Below are positions 13,013-21,696 of a DNA stretch of 64,000 bases, piece by piece. Source of the stretch: Gammaproteobacteria bacterium (GTDB taxonomy: Bacteria; Pseudomonadota; Gammaproteobacteria; Ga0077536); assembly GCA_963662545.2 (NCBI GenBank), contig CAXXLL010000002.1, positions 1,024,001-1,088,000 on the forward strand. Reading direction: 5' to 3'. Numbering within the stretch: the first letter of the stretch is position 1; the number at the start of each line of letters is the position of its first letter. The notes under the pieces are model-generated. The model was not told where the DNA came from. It saw only the letters and a program-made list of their open reading frames with translations, and made no database searches. The position numbers and the translations under genes were made by a program.

Positions 13013-14995
13013 GTGCTTGGCTTCAGTCGTTTAACGCCCCCTCCCTGGCCGCTCATTGTCGTGCTCCTCACGGGTGTGATGTTGCCAGCAGGTTTTACCT
13101 GGGCGAATGAGACAGACAGCGAAACAAATGACGATAGGAATACCGCAGAGCCATATACGGATCAGTACCTCGATGAGTTTGATGCCGACGAAATACCGAT
13201 TGATATCGGCGATGAACATGAAGGGCTGCCGCGGAGCTTCGCCGCCAACTATCGGACCTATGTCGATGCGCGCGAGATGATCAGACCGCTGGTCGAGCAC
13301 GGCCTGGATTTTCTTTGGTACCAGGAAACGGATGGATACGGCAGTTTCAACGCTACATTCGAACAACTCTTTAACAACGACGGCCGACCGAATCGAGATT
13401 CTCAAGGCGAGCGGTTTCAGTTGGAAAACCGGGATTTCGTCATCAATGAGAATTATGCCGCCGATACTCGACTCGGACATTTCCGCAGTGAATCCAACAG
13501 ATTGCTCGCGACGAGTTATCGGTTCTTTCTGCCGACCACCTTGCTGCAAGGCGGAACGACGCGCATCCATAGCGATCGGGCGGAGTTTGACGTCACTGCG
13601 GGCTATATCGGCGGGCTGCAAGGGACAGCAGCGCGCGGGTTTCGCAAAACTCGAGGAACCCTGCTAGGCGCCAGCGGCCAATTTTCGATCGATGACAATT
13701 GGAGTGCCTCCGCGCAATTCTGGGATACCAACGACGCCGGCATCGCCGGACGCAACCATCAAGTAGGTGGTGGGGCCGTTCAGTATTTGAGCGACGACCT
13801 GACCCAGAGGCATCAACTGCGTGGCCTGAAAGACAGTAAGGGCCAATTCGGCTCGTGGTACGACGGCGTATCTATCCTTGGACGGTGGCGCCATCGATAT
13901 GGCGCGTTTCACTTTGAGCGCGGCCTGCGGTGGACGGACGTGCAAATCGATAACGACCGGCAAGGTTTGTTCTGGCGCGGCGATTTCAGTTCGTTTCGGT
14001 GGCGCTGGACCCTGGGCTCCGAGGTGTCGAGGAACAACCTCGACGAGCTTGCGACTGTCGCCGGCAATGTCGTGACCAACTCGTTCGTCAACGGCAGCTG
14101 GCAGTTTCGTCGGAAAACGCAAATCGGCGGCCTGGTCACCGTGCGCACGCAACATGCGGATTCCGGTATCGCACGGGGTGACGGCCATACCGCTGAATTA
14201 CGTGCCTTCCTCGCACACGACTTTGCCTTCGGTTTGAGCCGGCTGGAACTGCGCTTCTTAAACGAGAACCTGCCTGCTATAGAACGCGCGGAAACGCAGC
14301 TCAGATGGGATCACGATTGGGCGATCGCATACCTTGATCGTTTTACGACAGAGTTTGAATTCACGCAGGATACATTCGAAGCGCAGGAGGTACTGCTGGG
14401 TATCATCGCCCAAAAAGACCTTACGGACACGGTGAGTGGCGGCTTGGATTTTCAATTGACCCACCGCCAGGACGAGAATGGCGTCGATTCGCGCGCCTAC
14501 AATTGGGGCTTCGGATTTCATTGGTTGGCGCACAGGGACGTCACCATTGACCTGAGTGCGACGGCGGGCCGCGTCACCACCGATCCCGTGATCGGCCCGT
14601 CACGTACCCTTGATGACCTAACGGTACTGTTGAGCGTGAGCTTTGTGAAACAACGAGGACGACCGGCACGAATGAGTGGTTACTCAACGGGACAACGCGG
14701 TAGCGGCACTATCAAAGGGCATGTGTTCTTCGATACGAACCGCAATGGTAAGCGGGATGGCGGTGAACGCGGGCTGCCGCGAATCACGGTATATCTTGAT
14801 GGCCACTTCCGTGCAGAAACGAATACCGCGGGAGAATTCGAATTCGAACGAGTCGGAGCCGGCGAACACTGGTTGCGTATCGCAGTGGAGGAAGCACCCT
14901 TACCCTTCGGCCTCGAAGACGAATCGCCGCAATCGCTCATCGTGCCGATACGCGGGATCGGGCGGATCGACTTCGGTCTGATCGAAATTGAATAG
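13013..14995 (+). CDS. predicted outer-membrane beta-barrel protein with C-terminal SdrD-B/CnaB-like domain (usher-like platform)
   Basis: Signal-like segment ending AGFTWA; long run of alternating aromatic/hydrophobic beta-strands; GTIKGHVFFDTNRNGKRDGGERGL C-terminal motif. Start uncertain (12788-13078). Confidence 0.7.
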   Translation: MLGFSRLTPPPWPLIVVLLTGVMLPAGFTWANETDSETNDDRNTAEPYTDQYLDEFDADEIPIDIGDEHEGLPRSFAANYRTYVDAREMIRPLVEHGLDFLWYQETDGYGSFNATFEQLFNNDGRPNRDSQGERFQLENRDFVINENYAADTRLGHFRSESNRLLATSYRFFLPTTLLQGGTTRIHSDRAEFDVTAGYIGGLQGTAARGFRKTRGTLLGASGQFSIDDNWSASAQFWDTNDAGIAGRNHQVGGGAVQYLSDDLTQRHQLRGLKDSKGQFGSWYDGVSILGRWRHRYGAFHFERGLRWTDVQIDNDRQGLFWRGDFSSFRWRWTLGSEVSRNNLDELATVAGNVVTNSFVNGSWQFRRKTQIGGLVTVRTQHADSGIARGDGHTAELRAFLAHDFAFGLSRLELRFLNENLPAIERAETQLRWDHDWAIAYLDRFTTEFEFTQDTFEAQEVLLGIIAQKDLTDTVSGGLDFQLTHRQDENGVDSRAYNWGFGFHWLAHRDVTIDLSATAGRVTTDPVIGPSRTLDDLTVLLSVSFVKQRGRPARMSGYSTGQRGSGTIKGHVFFDTNRNGKRDGGERGLPRITVYLDGHFRAETNTAGEFEFERVGAGEHWLRIAVEEAPLPFGLEDESPQSLIVPIRGIGRIDFGLIEIE

Positions 14996-15032
14996 TGCTG
15001 CGGCGCAGCTGCCCGAGATCGGCGGTGGCCCG

Positions 15033-15863
15033 TTATTCTTCGTTCAGTGGTGTGTCATCCAATTTCAGATTACCGCCATCCCATTCGATCAAGCCGGTCA
15101 TGGAGGCGGGCAGCGAGAGTTGCAAGGGGGGCGGTTCCCGATATTCGGGACCGCTCACCGACTGCAGCCCTATCGGCATACTGCGACCCGGTAAAACAGG
15201 AAAAGGCACGACTACAAGCTCGATGTTCGACCCGTCGCTCTGCCTGATGTTGACGCTGCCGAATGGCCGTCCATGCGCATTACCGGAATTGAAGAAATCG
15301 AGATAGGCCGCCTGCCGGCCATCCTCGCTTTCAATGACTCGAGCGCCGCGAAATTCCAAGTTCGCCGTGACGTCACCGATGACGACATACACGACAATGG
15401 CAATTTGGCCGGTTATTGGAATGCTGATATTACCTAATTGCGTCGTCTCAATGCTCTCCGGGGTTGGAGAAATTAAAATCGCAAAGCGGCATTCGCCCGC
15501 GCTGGCGTCGGCTGGAACCTGGATTTCGAATCGATATTTCTTGATTTGCTGAGGCGCGAGTTTTATCCGTCCGCGCTCGATTCGCGACCATGGCCGGCAC
15601 GAGTTCTCCGACAAGCCCGCGTCGACAGGTCGTATAACGACGCCACCCTGAGGATTGATGTCCCAGTCGGCCGTGCGGATGACGTATTCGGCCGTTTCCT
15701 CATCGTTATTCTGGATGTGGATGACGTGACGGACTTTGTCGCCGGGATCCGCCTTGAGTTCAAAATTCGGTGGGCTCACACGCGCTGCAAACGTCGCGGC
15801 ATGCGCTTGCCAAGCCACCGCAAATCCACACAGAAAGCAGGCGCCGATCAAGCACCTGTACAT
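15033..15863 (-). CDS. periplasmic chaperone-like protein (PapD/EcpB- or DUF916-like tandem Ig domains)
   Basis: Signal peptide (AHA); VSPPNFEL..DPG...IHIQN; FEIQVPADA..GECRFAI; FNSGNAHGRP second domain. Confidence 0.7.
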   Translation of the reverse strand: MYRCLIGACFLCGFAVAWQAHAATFAARVSPPNFELKADPGDKVRHVIHIQNNDEETAEYVIRTADWDINPQGGVVIRPVDAGLSENSCRPWSRIERGRIKLAPQQIKKYRFEIQVPADASAGECRFAILISPTPESIETTQLGNISIPITGQIAIVVYVVIGDVTANLEFRGARVIESEDGRQAAYLDFFNSGNAHGRPFGSVNIRQSDGSNIELVVVPFPVLPGRSMPIGLQSVSGPEYREPPPLQLSLPASMTGLIEWDGGNLKLDDTPLNEE

Positions 15864-15929
15864 ACTAAACTCGAAATTAATTGCCTCTCCCCCGCCATAC
15901 GCGCCGTTGTTGGTAATAAATGAGTGTCG

Positions 15930-16403
15930 CTACATCAATTCAATCTCATAGATCGGCTCGAAGCGCAGCGCGCCTGTTAGCGAGCGTGCATCGAGATTCA
16001 TGGTGAACGTAAAAAATTCGATGAGTAACGGGTCGCTCACGCGACCTTCGAAAATCAGCGCGCGGTTGCCGGGTGTCGTATGTCCGGCCAGAAAGTTTCC
16101 TCGGGTACGCCATTCGAGTTTCAGTCCGGCGCTATTCCCAAGCCCTTTTATCTGCTCCGGCAAGCGCAAGAAAATGCGTGCGTTTTGACCTACGAAATCA
16201 CGGGTATCGAGGCGCACCTCGGCATTCGGCACCCGCGCTGTAAGCGCGTTCAGCTCACGTTCGGACAGCGTGAACATATTGCCGTTATTCTGCCATTCGA
16301 GCTTGATGTTGAACTGTTGTCTGGGTGACGCCGAGTCGTCCAGGATCTGGGCACACGCCCAGGGCGCACAAAGGAGAAGAAACCAGGCGCAATACCGCAT
16401 CAC
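15930..16403 (-). CDS. secreted beta-rich hypothetical protein of the fibre locus
   Basis: Signal peptide (ACA-Q); start overlaps the stop of the upstream gene (GTGA/TGATG). Confidence 0.8.
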   Translation of the reverse strand: MMRYCAWFLLLCAPWACAQILDDSASPRQQFNIKLEWQNNGNMFTLSERELNALTARVPNAEVRLDTRDFVGQNARIFLRLPEQIKGLGNSAGLKLEWRTRGNFLAGHTTPGNRALIFEGRVSDPLLIEFFTFTMNLDARSLTGALRFEPIYEIELM

Positions 16404-16900
16404 GGTACCGCCGCAGTGTAGGTCACCGTACCCGCATAAGTACCGGAAGCGATCAGGTTGGTGTTGGCATAGCTGAACGTATGCGTGTCGATTACCACGA
16501 ACGCCGCGACGATAGGGCCTAGAATCACTTGTGCCGGCGTCCCCGCAAACGTACCCGACGGAATATCACCCGCTGCGGCGACCCAACTGATTTCTGTGAA
16601 CGGAATGGTCTCGAAACCATTATTCAACGGCGTTGACGAGTCGACCGTAAGGGTAAATACCTTGAATGGGATACTGAACGGTTGACGCGCATAGGCGCCG
16701 ACGAACATAGCTGGCGTGCCGCCAATGGGCGTGCCGTCGCCAACGTTGGTCACGGGGACATTGACATCCACCGTTGAAACGCCCGCCGGTTGTCCCACCC
16801 GCACGCCGATTTGAGCCGGGCCGAATCCAATGAAGAACACGGCTGCACTCGCGTCCGCCACGAGAGCGCTTACGAGCAAAAACAAAAGGAGGTTTTTCAT
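16400..16900 (-). CDS. minor pilin-like secreted subunit
   Basis: Signal peptide; IGVRVG, LNNGFETIPFTEISW, FSYAN...SGTYAGTVTYTAAVP parallel the major subunit. Confidence 0.75.
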   Translation of the reverse strand: MKNLLLFLLVSALVADASAAVFFIGFGPAQIGVRVGQPAGVSTVDVNVPVTNVGDGTPIGGTPAMFVGAYARQPFSIPFKVFTLTVDSSTPLNNGFETIPFTEISWVAAAGDIPSGTFAGTPAQVILGPIVAAFVVIDTHTFSYANTNLIASGTYAGTVTYTAAVP

Positions 16901-16928
16901 CGGTCTAGTCTCAGCGAACTTCAAAAGT

Positions 16929-16967
16929 GAAGCCCCGCACGCTAAAAGTCTAGCATAGCGGGGCTTC
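16929..16967 (-). terminator. intrinsic terminator/attenuator after the major subunit gene
   Basis: GAAGCCCCGC...GCGGGGCTTC stem followed on the - strand by ACTTTT. Confidence 0.65.
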
Positions 16968-16999
16968 GGTCCTCGGGGAGGAGGCGGGAGAGAATCCCG

Positions 17000-17596
17000 T
17001 TACAGCGCTACCGCCGTATAGGTCGCCGTACCGGTGTAAAGGCCGGATTGCGGCGGCGTCGCCGGATTATCGTAGGTGTATGTCCATACGCTGCTGCGAT
17101 CGACAACGCCCGTCGAGGTCACCGCTACGGCCGAGGTGTTGTTGCTGCTGTCGGACAGAGTCGGAGCCGGAATGCCGCCGCCGCCGGTGTCAGCGGAATT
17201 GATCTGCGCCCAACTAATGGTGCTCGTGCCGTTGCTCAAACCCGTTGCGCCGCTCGTGACTTCGGTGATTTGAACGGAACCGCCGTTACCGCGAATTTCA
17301 ACGGTAACTTGACCGGTACCAACGTCACCACCTGTGCCGGCCATACCGAGCGTTGGTGCCAACACATCGGCGACCGACGGTGCAAACGAGATCGTATCGA
17401 CGATTCCAGCCGAACCGACGCGGAATGACAGGAAGGCCGGAATCGTTATCTGGAAATCCAGATCGACGTTCGCACCTGCACCGCCTGGTAGAGCAGCAGC
17501 ACCGGTTACAATCTGCGTATCAGCCAGCGAACCCTGCGCGTAAGCTAACGAAGCAACGATGGCAGCGCTAACTAATGTCTTATTGAGTTTCATCAC
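17000..17596 (-). CDS. major pilin-like secreted subunit (Cys-free, Thr/Gly/Ser-rich)
   Basis: Signal peptide (SLA-D); ANVDLDFQITIP alternating strand; LSNGTSTISWAQI; WTYTYDN...SGLYTGTATYTAVAL; GGGAG RBS. Confidence 0.78.
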   Translation of the reverse strand: MMKLNKTLVSAAIVASLAYAQGSLADTQIVTGAAALPGGAGANVDLDFQITIPAFLSFRVGSAGIVDTISFAPSVADVLAPTLGMAGTGGDVGTGQVTVEIRGNGGSVQITEVTSGATGLSNGTSTISWAQINSADTGGGGIPAPTLSDSSNNTSAVAVTSTGVVDRSSVWTYTYDNPATPPQSGLYTGTATYTAVAL

Positions 17597-17654
17597 GTTT
17601 CTCCCGCAATTGCGAATTTAAAAAATTGGATTAAAAATTTTGTTGCCAGAGATA

Positions 17655-17671
17655 TTGCAAGCGGTGTGCCA
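17655..17671 (-). promoter_or_regulatory. sigma-54 (-24/-12) promoter of the subunit operon
   Basis: - strand TGGCAC-ACCGC-TTGCA matches the TGGCAC-N5-TTGC consensus, ~60 bp upstream of the start. Confidence 0.85.
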
Positions 17672-17691
17672 ATCTGGAACCGCGGATTATT

Positions 17692-17771
17692 TGTGCGGCA
17701 CGTCACAAGCCGCCGGCAGTGGTTTGTGATCGGTTTCACATGCGGGGGACGCTTACGTGACGGGCGTCACA
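17692..17771. promoter_or_regulatory. three CRP-family-type boxes
   Basis: TGTGC-N6-TCACA (17692), TGTGA-N6-TCACA (17725, perfect), CGTGA-N6-TCACA (17756). Confidence 0.65.
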
Positions 17772-17891
17772 AGCTCACTTTCTCTGCTGTCGCTCAGGAA
17801 CGACAGATCTTTGGAAACTGGAAATACTGCCTTTGAACCGGTTAATTTCGTGACCCCCTTCACAAAAACCGGGGGTACCGTAGAATGTAGG

Positions 17892-17918
17892 TATAGTAAT
17901 CACGATGCCTGCCGATAC
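17892..17918 (+). promoter_or_regulatory. possible sigma-28-like promoter
   Basis: TATA-N15-GCCGATAC vs consensus TAAA-N15-GCCGATAA (2 mismatches). Confidence 0.35.
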
Positions 17919-17926
17919 GGCTAAAC

Positions 17927-18265
17927 ATGATGGTTTTCAGGGGTTTATCGAAGTTGCAAGCGCGCCGCACCCAATGTGTTGGGGTGTTGCTGATCTCGTT
18001 GGGTCTAATGACGGCGTTTACCGTGTCGGCTGATGATTCAATCGGGGTCGGCGGCAACCGCAGTGCCGCGGCTCAGCTAGGTTTCAAAATTCTGATCCCG
18101 CAGGAGCTTAGCGCTGTCTTTCAAACCGGCAGTGATTCGAGGCCTGTCGTCTTCTCGTCCGGTGGACAGGTGAGTTTTACTGTAGATACCTATCGGTCGT
18201 CCGAAGATAGGGGCGCTTCAAATCTCGCGACCCCTCTCAATATTGCGACCGTCGCCGTTCCCTGA
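17927..18265 (+). CDS. short divergent pilin-like paralog
   Basis: Signal-like segment; SAAAQLGFKILIP, FSSGGQVSFT and C-terminal ATVAVP echo motifs of the major subunit. Confidence 0.6.
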   Translation: MMVFRGLSKLQARRTQCVGVLLISLGLMTAFTVSADDSIGVGGNRSAAAQLGFKILIPQELSAVFQTGSDSRPVVFSSGGQVSFTVDTYRSSEDRGASNLATPLNIATVAVP

Positions 18266-20196: not shown

Positions 20197-21507
20197 TCAG
20201 AGCGCGCTCTGGCGCCCATCAAATGTACGACGCCCGCAATCGGCAACGATGAGCAACTCCGTCAATGCGTGATAAGACCGTGCCTGCAAACCCGTGATAC
20301 TGAGGATTTTTTGCAACCGCGAATAGATCGTATTGGGGTGCACCGACAGCCTCTGCGCGGCTTTCAATACATTCATATCCGCGTTCGCGTATGCGCGTAA
20401 GGTCGCGACCAGAGAGCCGCCAAGCTTGTCATCAGCCAGAAAGAACTCATGCGTCCAAGCTGGCAGTACTCGCTGCAATTCATCGCCTGCTAAATGTAAC
20501 ATCAGACGCCGCGCCGGTACTTCGGAGATATGTACGACCCGGTGAGTTACCTCGGCGAGTTCGAGGGCGAGCAGTGCCTCTCTATAGGCCGTCGGAATCT
20601 GCGAAGTTGATGGCACGTCATTGCTGAGGCCGATTAAGACCGCGTTGCCGACCATCGATAGCCCGGACCTTACCCGTCTGCCGAGCGCTGTGTGCGGCGC
20701 CGTCCAACCGGACAGTCGGCAGGTATCGGAAAATACGATGGCGACCTTGTCGTGACGCAAATCGATGAGGCGACGCGACGGTGATCTCTGCAAAATCTTA
20801 TCGATTGAATCGACCAATCGACGTGCGCGATCAAGATTGATCATTTCTGAAGGATCTACGGGCTGCACCATTGCCACACAAAACGACTGATGTTTGTCGA
20901 GATAGCCGGCGTCGCGTAATACCTTCGCCACGCGCCCGTCCGACTCATCGTAGCCATCGAGCAAAATGGTGAGCAATTCCGCGCGCTGGTCCCCAGCGAC
21001 ATCGGCGAGCAAACGCGTTTGGGACAAATAGGCGCCCGCAGCGATCGAAGTGATCGCATCGGTATATTCGACCGTGAAATCCAAAGTAGCAGCGGCAAGT
21101 TGCTGCGCTTCTTCCGGGGACGATACCGACGCCAGTATCGCCTCACGGACCCAGCGCGAAAAGACCTTGTGACTGCAGCGGTACGCGTGCAGCGTCGCCT
21201 CCAATGAAAAACGGTGCTCAGCGCGCCGCCGGGCGTGCTCGCGCACGAAATCGAAGGTATCTACAGGACCGCCGCCAAGCAAATGTAGCATTTCACTCGT
21301 ATGCCGAGCGAGATCAGGCACGTCGTCGGGGTTCCTGGATTCAGAGAATGCCGGTATCGCGGCTAGGATTGCTTCGCTTTGTTCGGCATTGATGGCCGCG
21401 GAATTATCAGCTAGATGCCTGACGGCGACCGGCAGGAGTGGGTTGCGGCTGAGCTTCCGCAGTGCTTCATTGAGGGCCTTGGTATGATAATCGGACATTG
21501 GCCTCAT
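20197..21507 (-). CDS. PucR/CdaR-family transcriptional regulator
   Basis: C-terminal TLRAY...NVLKAAQRLSVHPNTIYSRLQKI HTH; start uncertain. Confidence 0.85.
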   Translation of the reverse strand: MRPMSDYHTKALNEALRKLSRNPLLPVAVRHLADNSAAINAEQSEAILAAIPAFSESRNPDDVPDLARHTSEMLHLLGGGPVDTFDFVREHARRRAEHRFSLEATLHAYRCSHKVFSRWVREAILASVSSPEEAQQLAAATLDFTVEYTDAITSIAAGAYLSQTRLLADVAGDQRAELLTILLDGYDESDGRVAKVLRDAGYLDKHQSFCVAMVQPVDPSEMINLDRARRLVDSIDKILQRSPSRRLIDLRHDKVAIVFSDTCRLSGWTAPHTALGRRVRSGLSMVGNAVLIGLSNDVPSTSQIPTAYREALLALELAEVTHRVVHISEVPARRLMLHLAGDELQRVLPAWTHEFFLADDKLGGSLVATLRAYANADMNVLKAAQRLSVHPNTIYSRLQKILSITGLQARSYHALTELLIVADCGRRTFDGRQSAL

Positions 21508-21696
21508 TGTGCACTTTACACATTTAGCAGTGCTATTTATCAGCACTTTACCCACTGTCAGGGGGTTCTGCTGATGATAGTCTCTAGTTTTATCAGCCTA
21601 TGCAACTGTAAGGCGTCATGCCGCAGTAGCCGGAAGGCTGCGTTTCAACAGCCGGGCCGACAGTCATTCCAACTCGTTAAATCGGAGATCCGAAAA

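Follow-up and report, generated by a model that had tools for sequence, protein, structure and literature searches.

The six-gene cluster examined here lies at positions 13013-18265 of a 64,000-nucleotide stretch of DNA (the window) from a gammaproteobacterium of the GTDB lineage Ga0077536 (assembly GCA_963662545.2, contig CAXXLL010000002.1, forward-strand positions 1,024,001-1,088,000). We consider it likely that the cluster directs assembly of a chaperone-usher-type fibre (pilus), and that it represents a deeply divergent family outside the current Pfam and NCBIfam models. In silico support for this assignment was drawn from the fold of a 276-amino-acid (aa) chaperone, the pilin-like fold of a 198-aa subunit, the modelled interface between these two proteins, the persistence of the genes as a module and remote profile links to PapD-type chaperones and to ushers. 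An earlier sequence-only reading of this DNA had proposed a fibre assembly system; this interpretation was supported overall by the complex model, by synteny at 15 loci and by the failure of all components to reach a standard profile cut-off.

In the scheme that we propose, all six proteins would cross the inner membrane by the Sec pathway. In the periplasm, the chaperone would capture each unfolded subunit by donor-strand complementation, a long strand of the chaperone (about residues 146-158, with alternating Ile and Val) entering the groove of the subunit parallel to its last strand. At the outer membrane, this strand would give way to the conserved N-terminal strand of the following subunit (in the 198-aa protein V44-L46-F48-I50-I52) in a donor-strand exchange, so that a linear, non-covalent polymer would form, composed chiefly of the 198-aa protein. 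Three smaller proteins of 174, 157 and 112 aa would serve as minor, tip or terminating subunits, and a 660-aa outer-membrane protein (OMP), comprising a barrel and a periplasmic C-terminal beta-sandwich, would act as the usher-equivalent pore for export and assembly. Strand exchange from one subunit to the next, the parts assigned to the small proteins, how the OMP is placed and functions, and surface display are the inferred elements of the scheme.

None of the six proteins reached a curated Pfam or NCBIfam cut-off. At E ≤ 1, Pfam returned sub-threshold matches only, with no match at all for the three subunits, and NCBIfam returned nothing meaningful for any of the six. Every component fell below the Pfam cut-offs for Csu, Ecp, CS1, Fimbrial, Usher, PapD and WxL, so that the expected lack of full-length matches to the standard Csu, Ecp and CS1 profiles was borne out. 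The further suggestion that the cluster matches no named system held as far as curated cut-offs are concerned but has to be qualified, as profile-profile comparison linked the chaperone remotely to PapD-type proteins and the OMP to ushers. Homologues were nevertheless plentiful: we collected 55 for the chaperone, 114 for the 198-aa subunit (none with a precomputed Pfam domain) and 46 for the 157-aa protein, while for the OMP there were 3421 matches at E ≤ 1e-3, many weak ones confined to its C-terminal repeat, and 165 at E ≤ 1e-30. With the exception of one chaperone carrying a SPOR domain, the listed homologues of the chaperone, 198-aa and 157-aa families had no precomputed Pfam domain; the OMP matches came with no annotation. 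The few source names were "hypothetical protein" and, twice, "fimbrial chaperone protein", and the named sources were metagenome-assembled genomes (MAGs) labelled Gamma-, Beta- and Deltaproteobacteria, Thermodesulfobacteriota and Desulfobacteraceae. We found no published description of the family in PMC and bioRxiv, a search that extended to neither subscription journals nor supplements; in one paper, PMC10599100, the terms Gram-negative, Proteobacteria, PapD, chaperone and pilus were all absent.

The chaperone and its modelled complex with a subunit

The chaperone gene (15033-15863, minus strand) codes for 276 aa, with a signal peptide and an invariant, disulfide-capable pair of cysteines (Cys89 and Cys125); a C-terminal membrane anchor was not seen. 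An AlphaFold2 (AF2) model based on an alignment of 30 homologues had a predicted local distance difference test score (pLDDT) of 90.3 and consisted of two beta-sandwich domains, in agreement with the two-domain chaperone-like protein of the earlier reading. The model thus has the two-domain immunoglobulin (Ig)-like fold that is a trait of chaperone-usher chaperones. Foldseek searches with this model placed the WxL-interacting protein (WxLIP) of E. faecium at the top (9i25_C, E 2.4e-10), followed by CfaA, YadV, CsuC, EcpB, FimC, Caf1M and PapD. In a structure comparison, WxLIP scored 14.3 over 227-229 residues, CsuC 12.2 over 179, CfaA 12.0 over 196, EcpB 11.7 over 173, and Caf1M, FimC and PapD about 11 over 172-198.

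The Pfam model PF06030 (WxLIP_PGBD/DUF916) matched the window chaperone at E 1.5e-4 with 22.2 bits, below its cut-off of 27.3, and at E ≤ 1 it matched 21 of the 30 family members (best E 5.2e-6), all matches shown with score and cut-off being below the latter. PapD_N (PF00345) matched neither the window chaperone nor any of the 30 members at E ≤ 1, and PF11797 (DUF3324) was likewise found in none of the 30. A search of solved-structure sequences with the single chaperone sequence returned no match at E ≤ 10, and the family profile retrieved 9i25_C at E 0.003. When the family was aligned by hhalign to a PapD-type reference made of five chaperones from genomes of the same class, a probability of 84.4% was obtained (E 7e-6, 188 columns over both domains), against 0.1% for a reversed control. 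On these comparisons we regard the chaperone family as a remote member of the PapD-like superfamily, somewhat nearer to the Gram-positive DUF916 branch. The likeness to WxL/DUF916 clusters that had been noticed earlier therefore stood for the chaperone, with its sub-threshold PF06030 matches and its best structure match to WxLIP, but not for the subunits, which showed neither the WxL motif nor a WxL Pfam match.

Two homologues deserve mention in their own right. A 414-aa chaperone (P0022) extended into a C-terminal Pro/Ala-rich linker and a SPOR domain (PF05036, E 1.7e-11; alignment columns 300-447); this fusion agrees with residence in the periplasm and suggests that in some variants the chaperone would be tethered to the cell wall. 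A distant cousin at the locus L032 matched the family profile at E 4e-15 and PapD_N at about its cut-off (21.6-23 bits).

We modelled the mature chaperone together with the mature 198-aa protein, using a separate alignment for either partner, in three runs and with three controls. The ipSAE values were 0.84, 0.85 and 0.84 and the best of the three controls reached 0.07; the mark used for ipSAE is attained by 58 of 80 solved complexes and by 2 of 110 mismatched pairs, a calibration that is rough here as self-made alignments were used. At least 89% of the contacts were common to the runs and the partner had a pLDDT of at least 84. Contacts of lowest predicted error brought chaperone residues 148-155 into register with subunit residues 191-196, and because the numbers rise together the chaperone strand would run parallel to the last strand of the subunit. 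As chaperone residues 153-154 also contacted residues 56-58, in the first strand of the subunit, the chaperone strand is placed between the first and last subunit strands. The N-terminal strand of the chaperone (24-33) contacted subunit residues 53-61, and overall the chaperone-contacted residues of the subunit were 53-61 and 184-198.

The modelled geometry is that of donor-strand complementation, the groove of the subunit being filled by the chaperone strand; the available part of a recent preprint summarises this geometry for both chaperone-usher and WxL systems (10.64898/2026.10.17.759780). The subunit would accordingly not be a closed monomer, as the sequence-only reading had anticipated. 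No residue of the subunit segment 26-52, in which the conserved N-terminal strand lies, was named among the confident chaperone contacts. A strand that is conserved yet lies outside these contacts has, in this model, the pattern expected of a donor strand.

Pilin-like subunits and the outer-membrane protein

The 198-aa protein (17000-17596, minus strand) is the probable major subunit of the fibre. It consists of a signal peptide, an 18-residue Gly/Ala-rich leader, an N-terminal strand and a pilin-like Ig domain that ends in TYTAVAL. Five hydrophobic residues alternate in the N-terminal strand (V44, L46, F48, I50 and I52), which precedes the Ig core and ranks with the best-conserved regions of the subunit family alignment (A2; 43 members in the conservation and Pfam counts): F48 is invariant, and I52 and P53 are kept in at least 90% of members. 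The AF2 model had a pLDDT of 85, rising above 90 from residue 50 onward. Sequence searches against solved structures were uninformative, with CcmK noise only for the 198-aa protein (E ≥ 0.29) and one match for the family profile (E 1.7), and Foldseek returned nothing at E ≤ 1e-3 for the model. Exhaustive structure alignment (VIA-align) and a second structure comparison, on the other hand, gave lists in which nearly all entries were donor-strand pilins. The 9i25 WxL chain was missing from the best 50 of either list, an absence that does not exclude a WxL fold, and the lists for both subunit and chaperone also contained non-pilus Ig-like modules (MSP, ASH and glycoside-hydrolase domains). In the 43 members, the Pfam models WxL (at E ≤ 1), SCPU and Fimbrial found no match.

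A second pilin-like subunit of 174 aa, as the open reading frame (ORF) was called, is encoded at 16400-16924 on the minus strand; an internal ATG at 16900 is an equally plausible start. It is 28% identical to the 198-aa protein, matches the family profile at E 1.7e-36 and has no cysteine. The motifs F/V-RVG, L.NG..TI....I and G.Y.GT.TYTA, previously quoted as common to these two proteins, were indeed present in both. The mature N-terminus of the 174-aa protein starts straight with a donor-strand-like stretch of alternating hydrophobic residues. Mature subunits are devoid of cysteine, as had been stated, the few that occur being located in the signal peptides. A W-x-L motif was found in none of the three subunits. 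At their C-termini, a strand of the pattern aromatic-x-aliphatic leads into Pro or Leu, an ending that may resemble the C-termini of WxL proteins. In a separate observation, residues 85-95 of the 198-aa protein form a G-T-G-G-D-x-G loop, of which G87, T88, G89, G90, D91 and G95 are kept in at least 90% of the 43 members; this loop may resemble a single RTX-like calcium-binding turn.

The view that the cluster holds three paralogous subunits stood for the 198- and 174-aa proteins and only weakly for the third, a short 112-aa protein encoded at 17927-18265 on the plus strand (family profile E 8e-5). The latter shares the N-terminal strand motif with them and carries a comparable C-terminal strand, yet its length does not allow a complete Ig domain. 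Conservation was seen in the related locus L001, the only one with a clear counterpart (50% identity); a weak family-like ORF of 140 aa was seen in L020. The 112-aa protein is possibly a terminator or base subunit, which would donate a strand and not accept one.

The 157-aa exported protein (15930-16403, minus strand) is of unknown fold. Its gene is found in 12 of the 15 loci of the module described below, and a single-pair comparison gave a low ratio of nonsynonymous to synonymous substitution rates (dN/dS) of 0.05. It showed no similarity to Pfam, to the PDB or to the subunit family, and its own family profile reached a best E of 0.31 against solved structures. With only 0.8-9% in hhalign comparison to the subunit family, it does not qualify as a subunit paralogue. 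Language-model neighbours included clusters with Saf-Nte_pilin (0.92) and AfaD (0.91), which we treat as leads only. The label DUF4402, attached in the Atlas to the nearest cluster, was set aside: the cluster is annotated "none common" and Pfam at E ≤ 1 gave no such match. A role as tip, adaptor or initiator subunit is possible.

The OMP gene (13013-14995, plus strand) codes for 660 aa from a GTG at 13013, which gives a signal-peptide-like N-terminus; the ORF itself is open from 12788. The signal peptide is followed by an acidic N-terminal segment, a predicted beta-barrel of about 480 aa, a linker and a C-terminal beta-sandwich resembling SdrD_B and CarboxypepD_reg domains. Some 18 amphipathic, beta-like segments were counted in residues 97-543 by a crude scan, in which no helix-like hydrophobic stretch appeared. 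The segment ahead of the linker ends in LLSVSF, which presumably is beta-signal-like. The C-terminus scored 25.7 bits against SdrD_B, below the cut-off of 29.7; among 37 family members SdrD_B was matched by all 37 and CarboxypepD_reg by 30, only the last ~100 residues being recognised, and the Usher model (PF00577) was matched by none at E ≤ 0.1.

Aligned by hhalign to five ushers, the OMP family gave a probability of 88.9% (E 2.4e-6, 278 columns), residues 359-658 being paired with the C-terminal part of the usher barrel and the domain that follows it. Controls remained low: the reversed family gave 1.9%, LptD and BamA against ushers 0.2-0.3%, and the OMP family against LptD and BamA 0.4%, while five block shuffles gave at most 0.6% against the first usher alignment, for which the real value was 83.3%. 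On this profile evidence the OMP is probably a very distant relative of ushers, or at least shares their design of a barrel plus a periplasmic sandwich. The source genome (96.85% complete) contained no match to Usher or PapD_N, and therefore no other platform of a known kind is available. We thus put the OMP forward as a candidate usher-equivalent platform. In L001 (8863-10833, minus strand) the OMP gene is present as two ORFs of 342 and 312 aa, both of the OMP family (E 7e-111 and 1e-91); the split is a frameshift, a stop or an assembly error.

Conservation of the module and alternative explanations

In order to define the module, ORFs were scanned with the family profiles in 15 flanking regions from a sample of the class and 3 from a sample of the phylum. 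Counts refer to the 15 loci with a strong chaperone match, the window included, which belong to different genera. The OMP gene adjoins the chaperone gene in all 15, and one to four subunit genes are present in 14, the exception being at a contig end. Gene order and OMP orientation vary among the loci and the set stays together, so that co-occurrence of the genes in other genomes, on which the fibre proposal had been made to depend, was found. Across 400 genomes drawn evenly over the class, the chaperone profile was matched in 16, corresponding to 13 of 321 genera; across the phylum it was matched in 5 of 401 genomes. Close relatives gave matches in 2 of 31 genomes: one of two further genomes of the genus was positive, and the 16 other genera of the family were all negative. 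The occurrence is scattered in the manner of an accessory trait. Classical ushers (5 of 81 class-wide genomes) and PapD_N chaperones (6 of 81) were about as rare. One genome (G050) held both the classical and the new kind; in another (G014) the new module was present and a classical usher was not found.

Weaker chaperone-like matches at L031, L033, L052 and L053 had neither subunit nor OMP neighbours and were not counted as modules. Three of these are distant chaperone-like genes with family profile E-values of 1e-17 to 1e-27 (L031:7812-8633, L052:7836-8744 and L053:7764-8612, all on the minus strand), that of L031 adjoining genes for PqiA, an MlaD-domain protein and an ABC-auxiliary lipoprotein. 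Locus L032 (6392-11309, plus strand) has a parallel four-gene layout, in which the borderline PapD_N chaperone stands with two unrelated, family-less small proteins of 240 and 190 aa and an 833-aa OMP, at whose C-terminus the same CarboxypepD_reg/SdrD_B domain is found. The layout hints at a wider superfamily of such modules.

Within the window, the six ORFs and their signal-peptide-like N-termini were confirmed from the ORF list and by hydropathy: hydrophobic stretches occur at all six N-termini (best 19-aa Kyte-Doolittle mean 1.3-2.4) but to no comparable degree at any C-terminus, a second membrane-spanning stretch is absent throughout, and cleavage sites were assigned by eye. The 157-aa gene overlaps the stop end of the upstream 174-aa gene by 4 bases, in keeping with the translational coupling that had been suggested. 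Compared with the relative L001 (a single pair, with chaperones 90% identical; five genes, the OMP being left out), dN/dS was 0.04 for the 174-aa protein, 0.08 for the chaperone, 0.16 for the 198-aa protein and 0.31 for the 112-aa protein, in addition to the value given above for the 157-aa protein. All five compared genes are under purifying selection, and the presumed exposed subunits are the fastest evolving. Because of these ratios (0.04-0.31), and of the tens to hundreds of homologues in each family, we regard the ORFs as real genes rather than chance ones.

The module is single-copy in the source genome and forms a self-contained island of six genes. Flanking genes code for a luciferase-like monooxygenase, an enoyl-CoA hydratase, a cobalamin-independent synthase-domain protein and a PucR-type regulator, and no link between these and the cluster was evident. 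The regulator, with a GGDEF-like domain, lies at 20197-21555 of the window on the minus strand, 2 kb from the cluster, with the cobalamin-independent synthase-domain gene in between. The divergent 198- and 112-aa genes are separated by 330 bp (17597-17926), the presumed control region, in which a single promoter-like site was found (17859-17886, plus strand), a weak piece of evidence.

Several points count against a fibre with this mode of assembly. Promoter-like sites were no more frequent in the scanned region than in shuffled sequence (2 found, 3.6 expected), and terminator-like sites were likewise not enriched. The cluster contains no gene for a large adhesin, and the 157-aa family has no pilin relation that profile methods could detect. 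Chaperone-pilin complexes are common among solved structures, so that the pass of the complex model may reflect likeness to these rather than binding of the two proteins modelled. The OMP is the weakest link of the scheme: its barrel is deduced from the crude amphipathicity scan and from four weak OMP-type Pfam matches among 37 members, and the usher signal derives mostly from the C-terminal sandwich, which alone gave 47% against 1.7% for the barrel alone.

Three other explanations were considered. The chaperone and OMP might serve to export, or to hold, beta-sandwich surface proteins that remain monomeric (adhesins, coat or lectin-like proteins, for instance), or the small proteins might stay in the periplasm. 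Polymerisation is indeed a matter of inference, non-pilus proteins too can contain Ig-like folds and PapD-like domains (examples are the MSP, ASH and glycoside-hydrolase modules), and a tip adhesin gene is missing. Such a non-polymeric system is unlikely in our view, given the conserved strand of five hydrophobic residues outside the confident chaperone contacts, the open subunit groove that is modelled as filled by the chaperone strand, and the presence of several paralogous subunits per locus (1-4), as in pilus operons. Even with a fibre granted, the 660-aa OMP could be an anchor, a porin or a partner binding peptidoglycan or matrix, export taking another route. A plug or N-terminal usher domain was not detected by hhalign (0.4% for the N-terminal part of the OMP against ushers), and SdrD_B and CarboxypepD_reg domains are common in adhesins; yet the OMP and chaperone genes are neighbours in all 15 loci, however much order and orientation vary, the source genome has no Usher-family gene, the whole-protein usher match was specific against five kinds of control, and L032 also pairs its chaperone with an OMP having the same C-terminal domain. 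We give this arrangement rather little credence.

The nearest structure and the nearest Pfam model of the chaperone, WxLIP and DUF916, together with the possibly WxL-like ends of the subunits, would also fit a true diderm member of the WxL/Elr system, with a DUF916/DUF3324-orthologous chaperone, divergent WxL-domain subunits and an OMP added for export. We hold this to be very improbable. PF06030 stayed below its cut-off wherever a score was shown and PF11797 was matched by none of the 30 chaperones; the chaperone lacks a C-terminal anchor, whereas 96.7% of WxL chaperones are anchored according to the available part of the preprint (10.64898/2026.10.17.759780). None of the 43 subunits had a WxL Pfam match, the W-x-L motif was missing, and the listed structure matches of the subunit were chaperone-usher pilins; the WxL chain of 9i25 was absent from the best 50, which does not exclude it. 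A motif scan for LPx[TSA]G was negative in all six proteins, sortase genes themselves not having been searched for. The chaperone-usher-type fibre remains our preferred explanation.

Comparison with known fibre systems

Chaperone-usher pili of the classical, alternate and archaic types (CFA/I class 5, Csu, Ecp, Fim/Pap and Caf1) resemble the present system in the modelled course of the chaperone strand, parallel to the last strand of the subunit, in an operon of several subunits with a chaperone and a large OMP, and in remote profile likeness (84% for the chaperone to PapD-type proteins and 89% for the OMP to ushers). By family models they differ, with PapD_N matched by 0/30 chaperones, Usher by 0/37 OMPs and Fimbrial or SCPU by 0/43 subunits. 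The OMP described here is shorter (660 aa), with no N-terminal or plug domain detected and a single C-terminal SdrD_B-like sandwich; the mature subunits are Cys-free; the chaperone carries an invariant Cys pair; and a further conserved protein of unknown family, that of 157 aa, is present. Archaic (Csu/spore-coat-U) fimbriae in particular have SCPU subunits with a disulfide, whereas here no SCPU match was found in 43 members and mature cysteines are missing.

The available part of the preprint describes WxL clusters as building a donor-strand-exchange pilus with a membrane-anchored DUF916/DUF3324 chaperone, a system confined to Bacillota among 4,698 genera screened, and states that at E ≤ 1e-20 nothing connects the WxL chaperones with those of the PapD kind (10.64898/2026.10.17.759780). 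As far as that text goes, the screen used Pfam-defined families and would miss the chaperone family reported here. Compared with the Elr/WxL pilus and its ElrE or WxLIP chaperone, the present chaperone is soluble and unanchored, with no DUF3324 detected, the subunits are not WxL domains by sequence, and an OMP is found where the Elr/WxL pilus has an LPxTG anchor and sortase. The host here, a gammaproteobacterium, is a diderm; the Elr/WxL system is reported, in the same part of the preprint, from Bacillota only. The pond-water fibrils TLP-1a/b of CryoSeek, as presented in the available part of PMC11494351, show fold-level likeness only: identity to TLP-1 is 11%, and the subunit family profile finds no TLP-1 chain by sequence. 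That report gives a larger TLP-1 protomer, of about 237 aa, with assembly genes not known. The module supplies candidate genes for unidentified environmental fibres like those seen by cryo-electron microscopy of water samples.

Since chaperone-usher pili are classified and counted via the PapD and Usher families, a module that escapes these is invisible to annotation. More tentatively, and at somewhat less than even odds in our judgement, the family might be a third lineage of chaperone-guided donor-strand-exchange pili, a diderm sister of WxL/Elr with a chaperone between DUF916 and PapD and its own minimal usher class. Were this the case, both known pathways would originate in a common ancestral chaperone-pilin module; environmental Pseudomonadota and, by MAG labels, also Thermodesulfobacteriota would make a kind of pilus missed by family models; and the minimal usher class would be defined by a barrel with one SdrD_B-like periplasmic domain. 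A smaller usher-like protein of this kind would also offer a handle on pore-catalysed strand exchange.

The module is thus neither a classical chaperone-usher system by sequence criteria nor a WxL system, and appears to work like both. It most likely constitutes an undescribed, deeply divergent family of chaperone-usher-type fibre machinery whose chaperone is nearest to those of Gram-positive WxL clusters. With its subunits and OMP leaning towards chaperone-usher pili, the family may connect the two pathways, and the module is a possible link between chaperone-guided pilus assembly in Gram-positive and Gram-negative bacteria.

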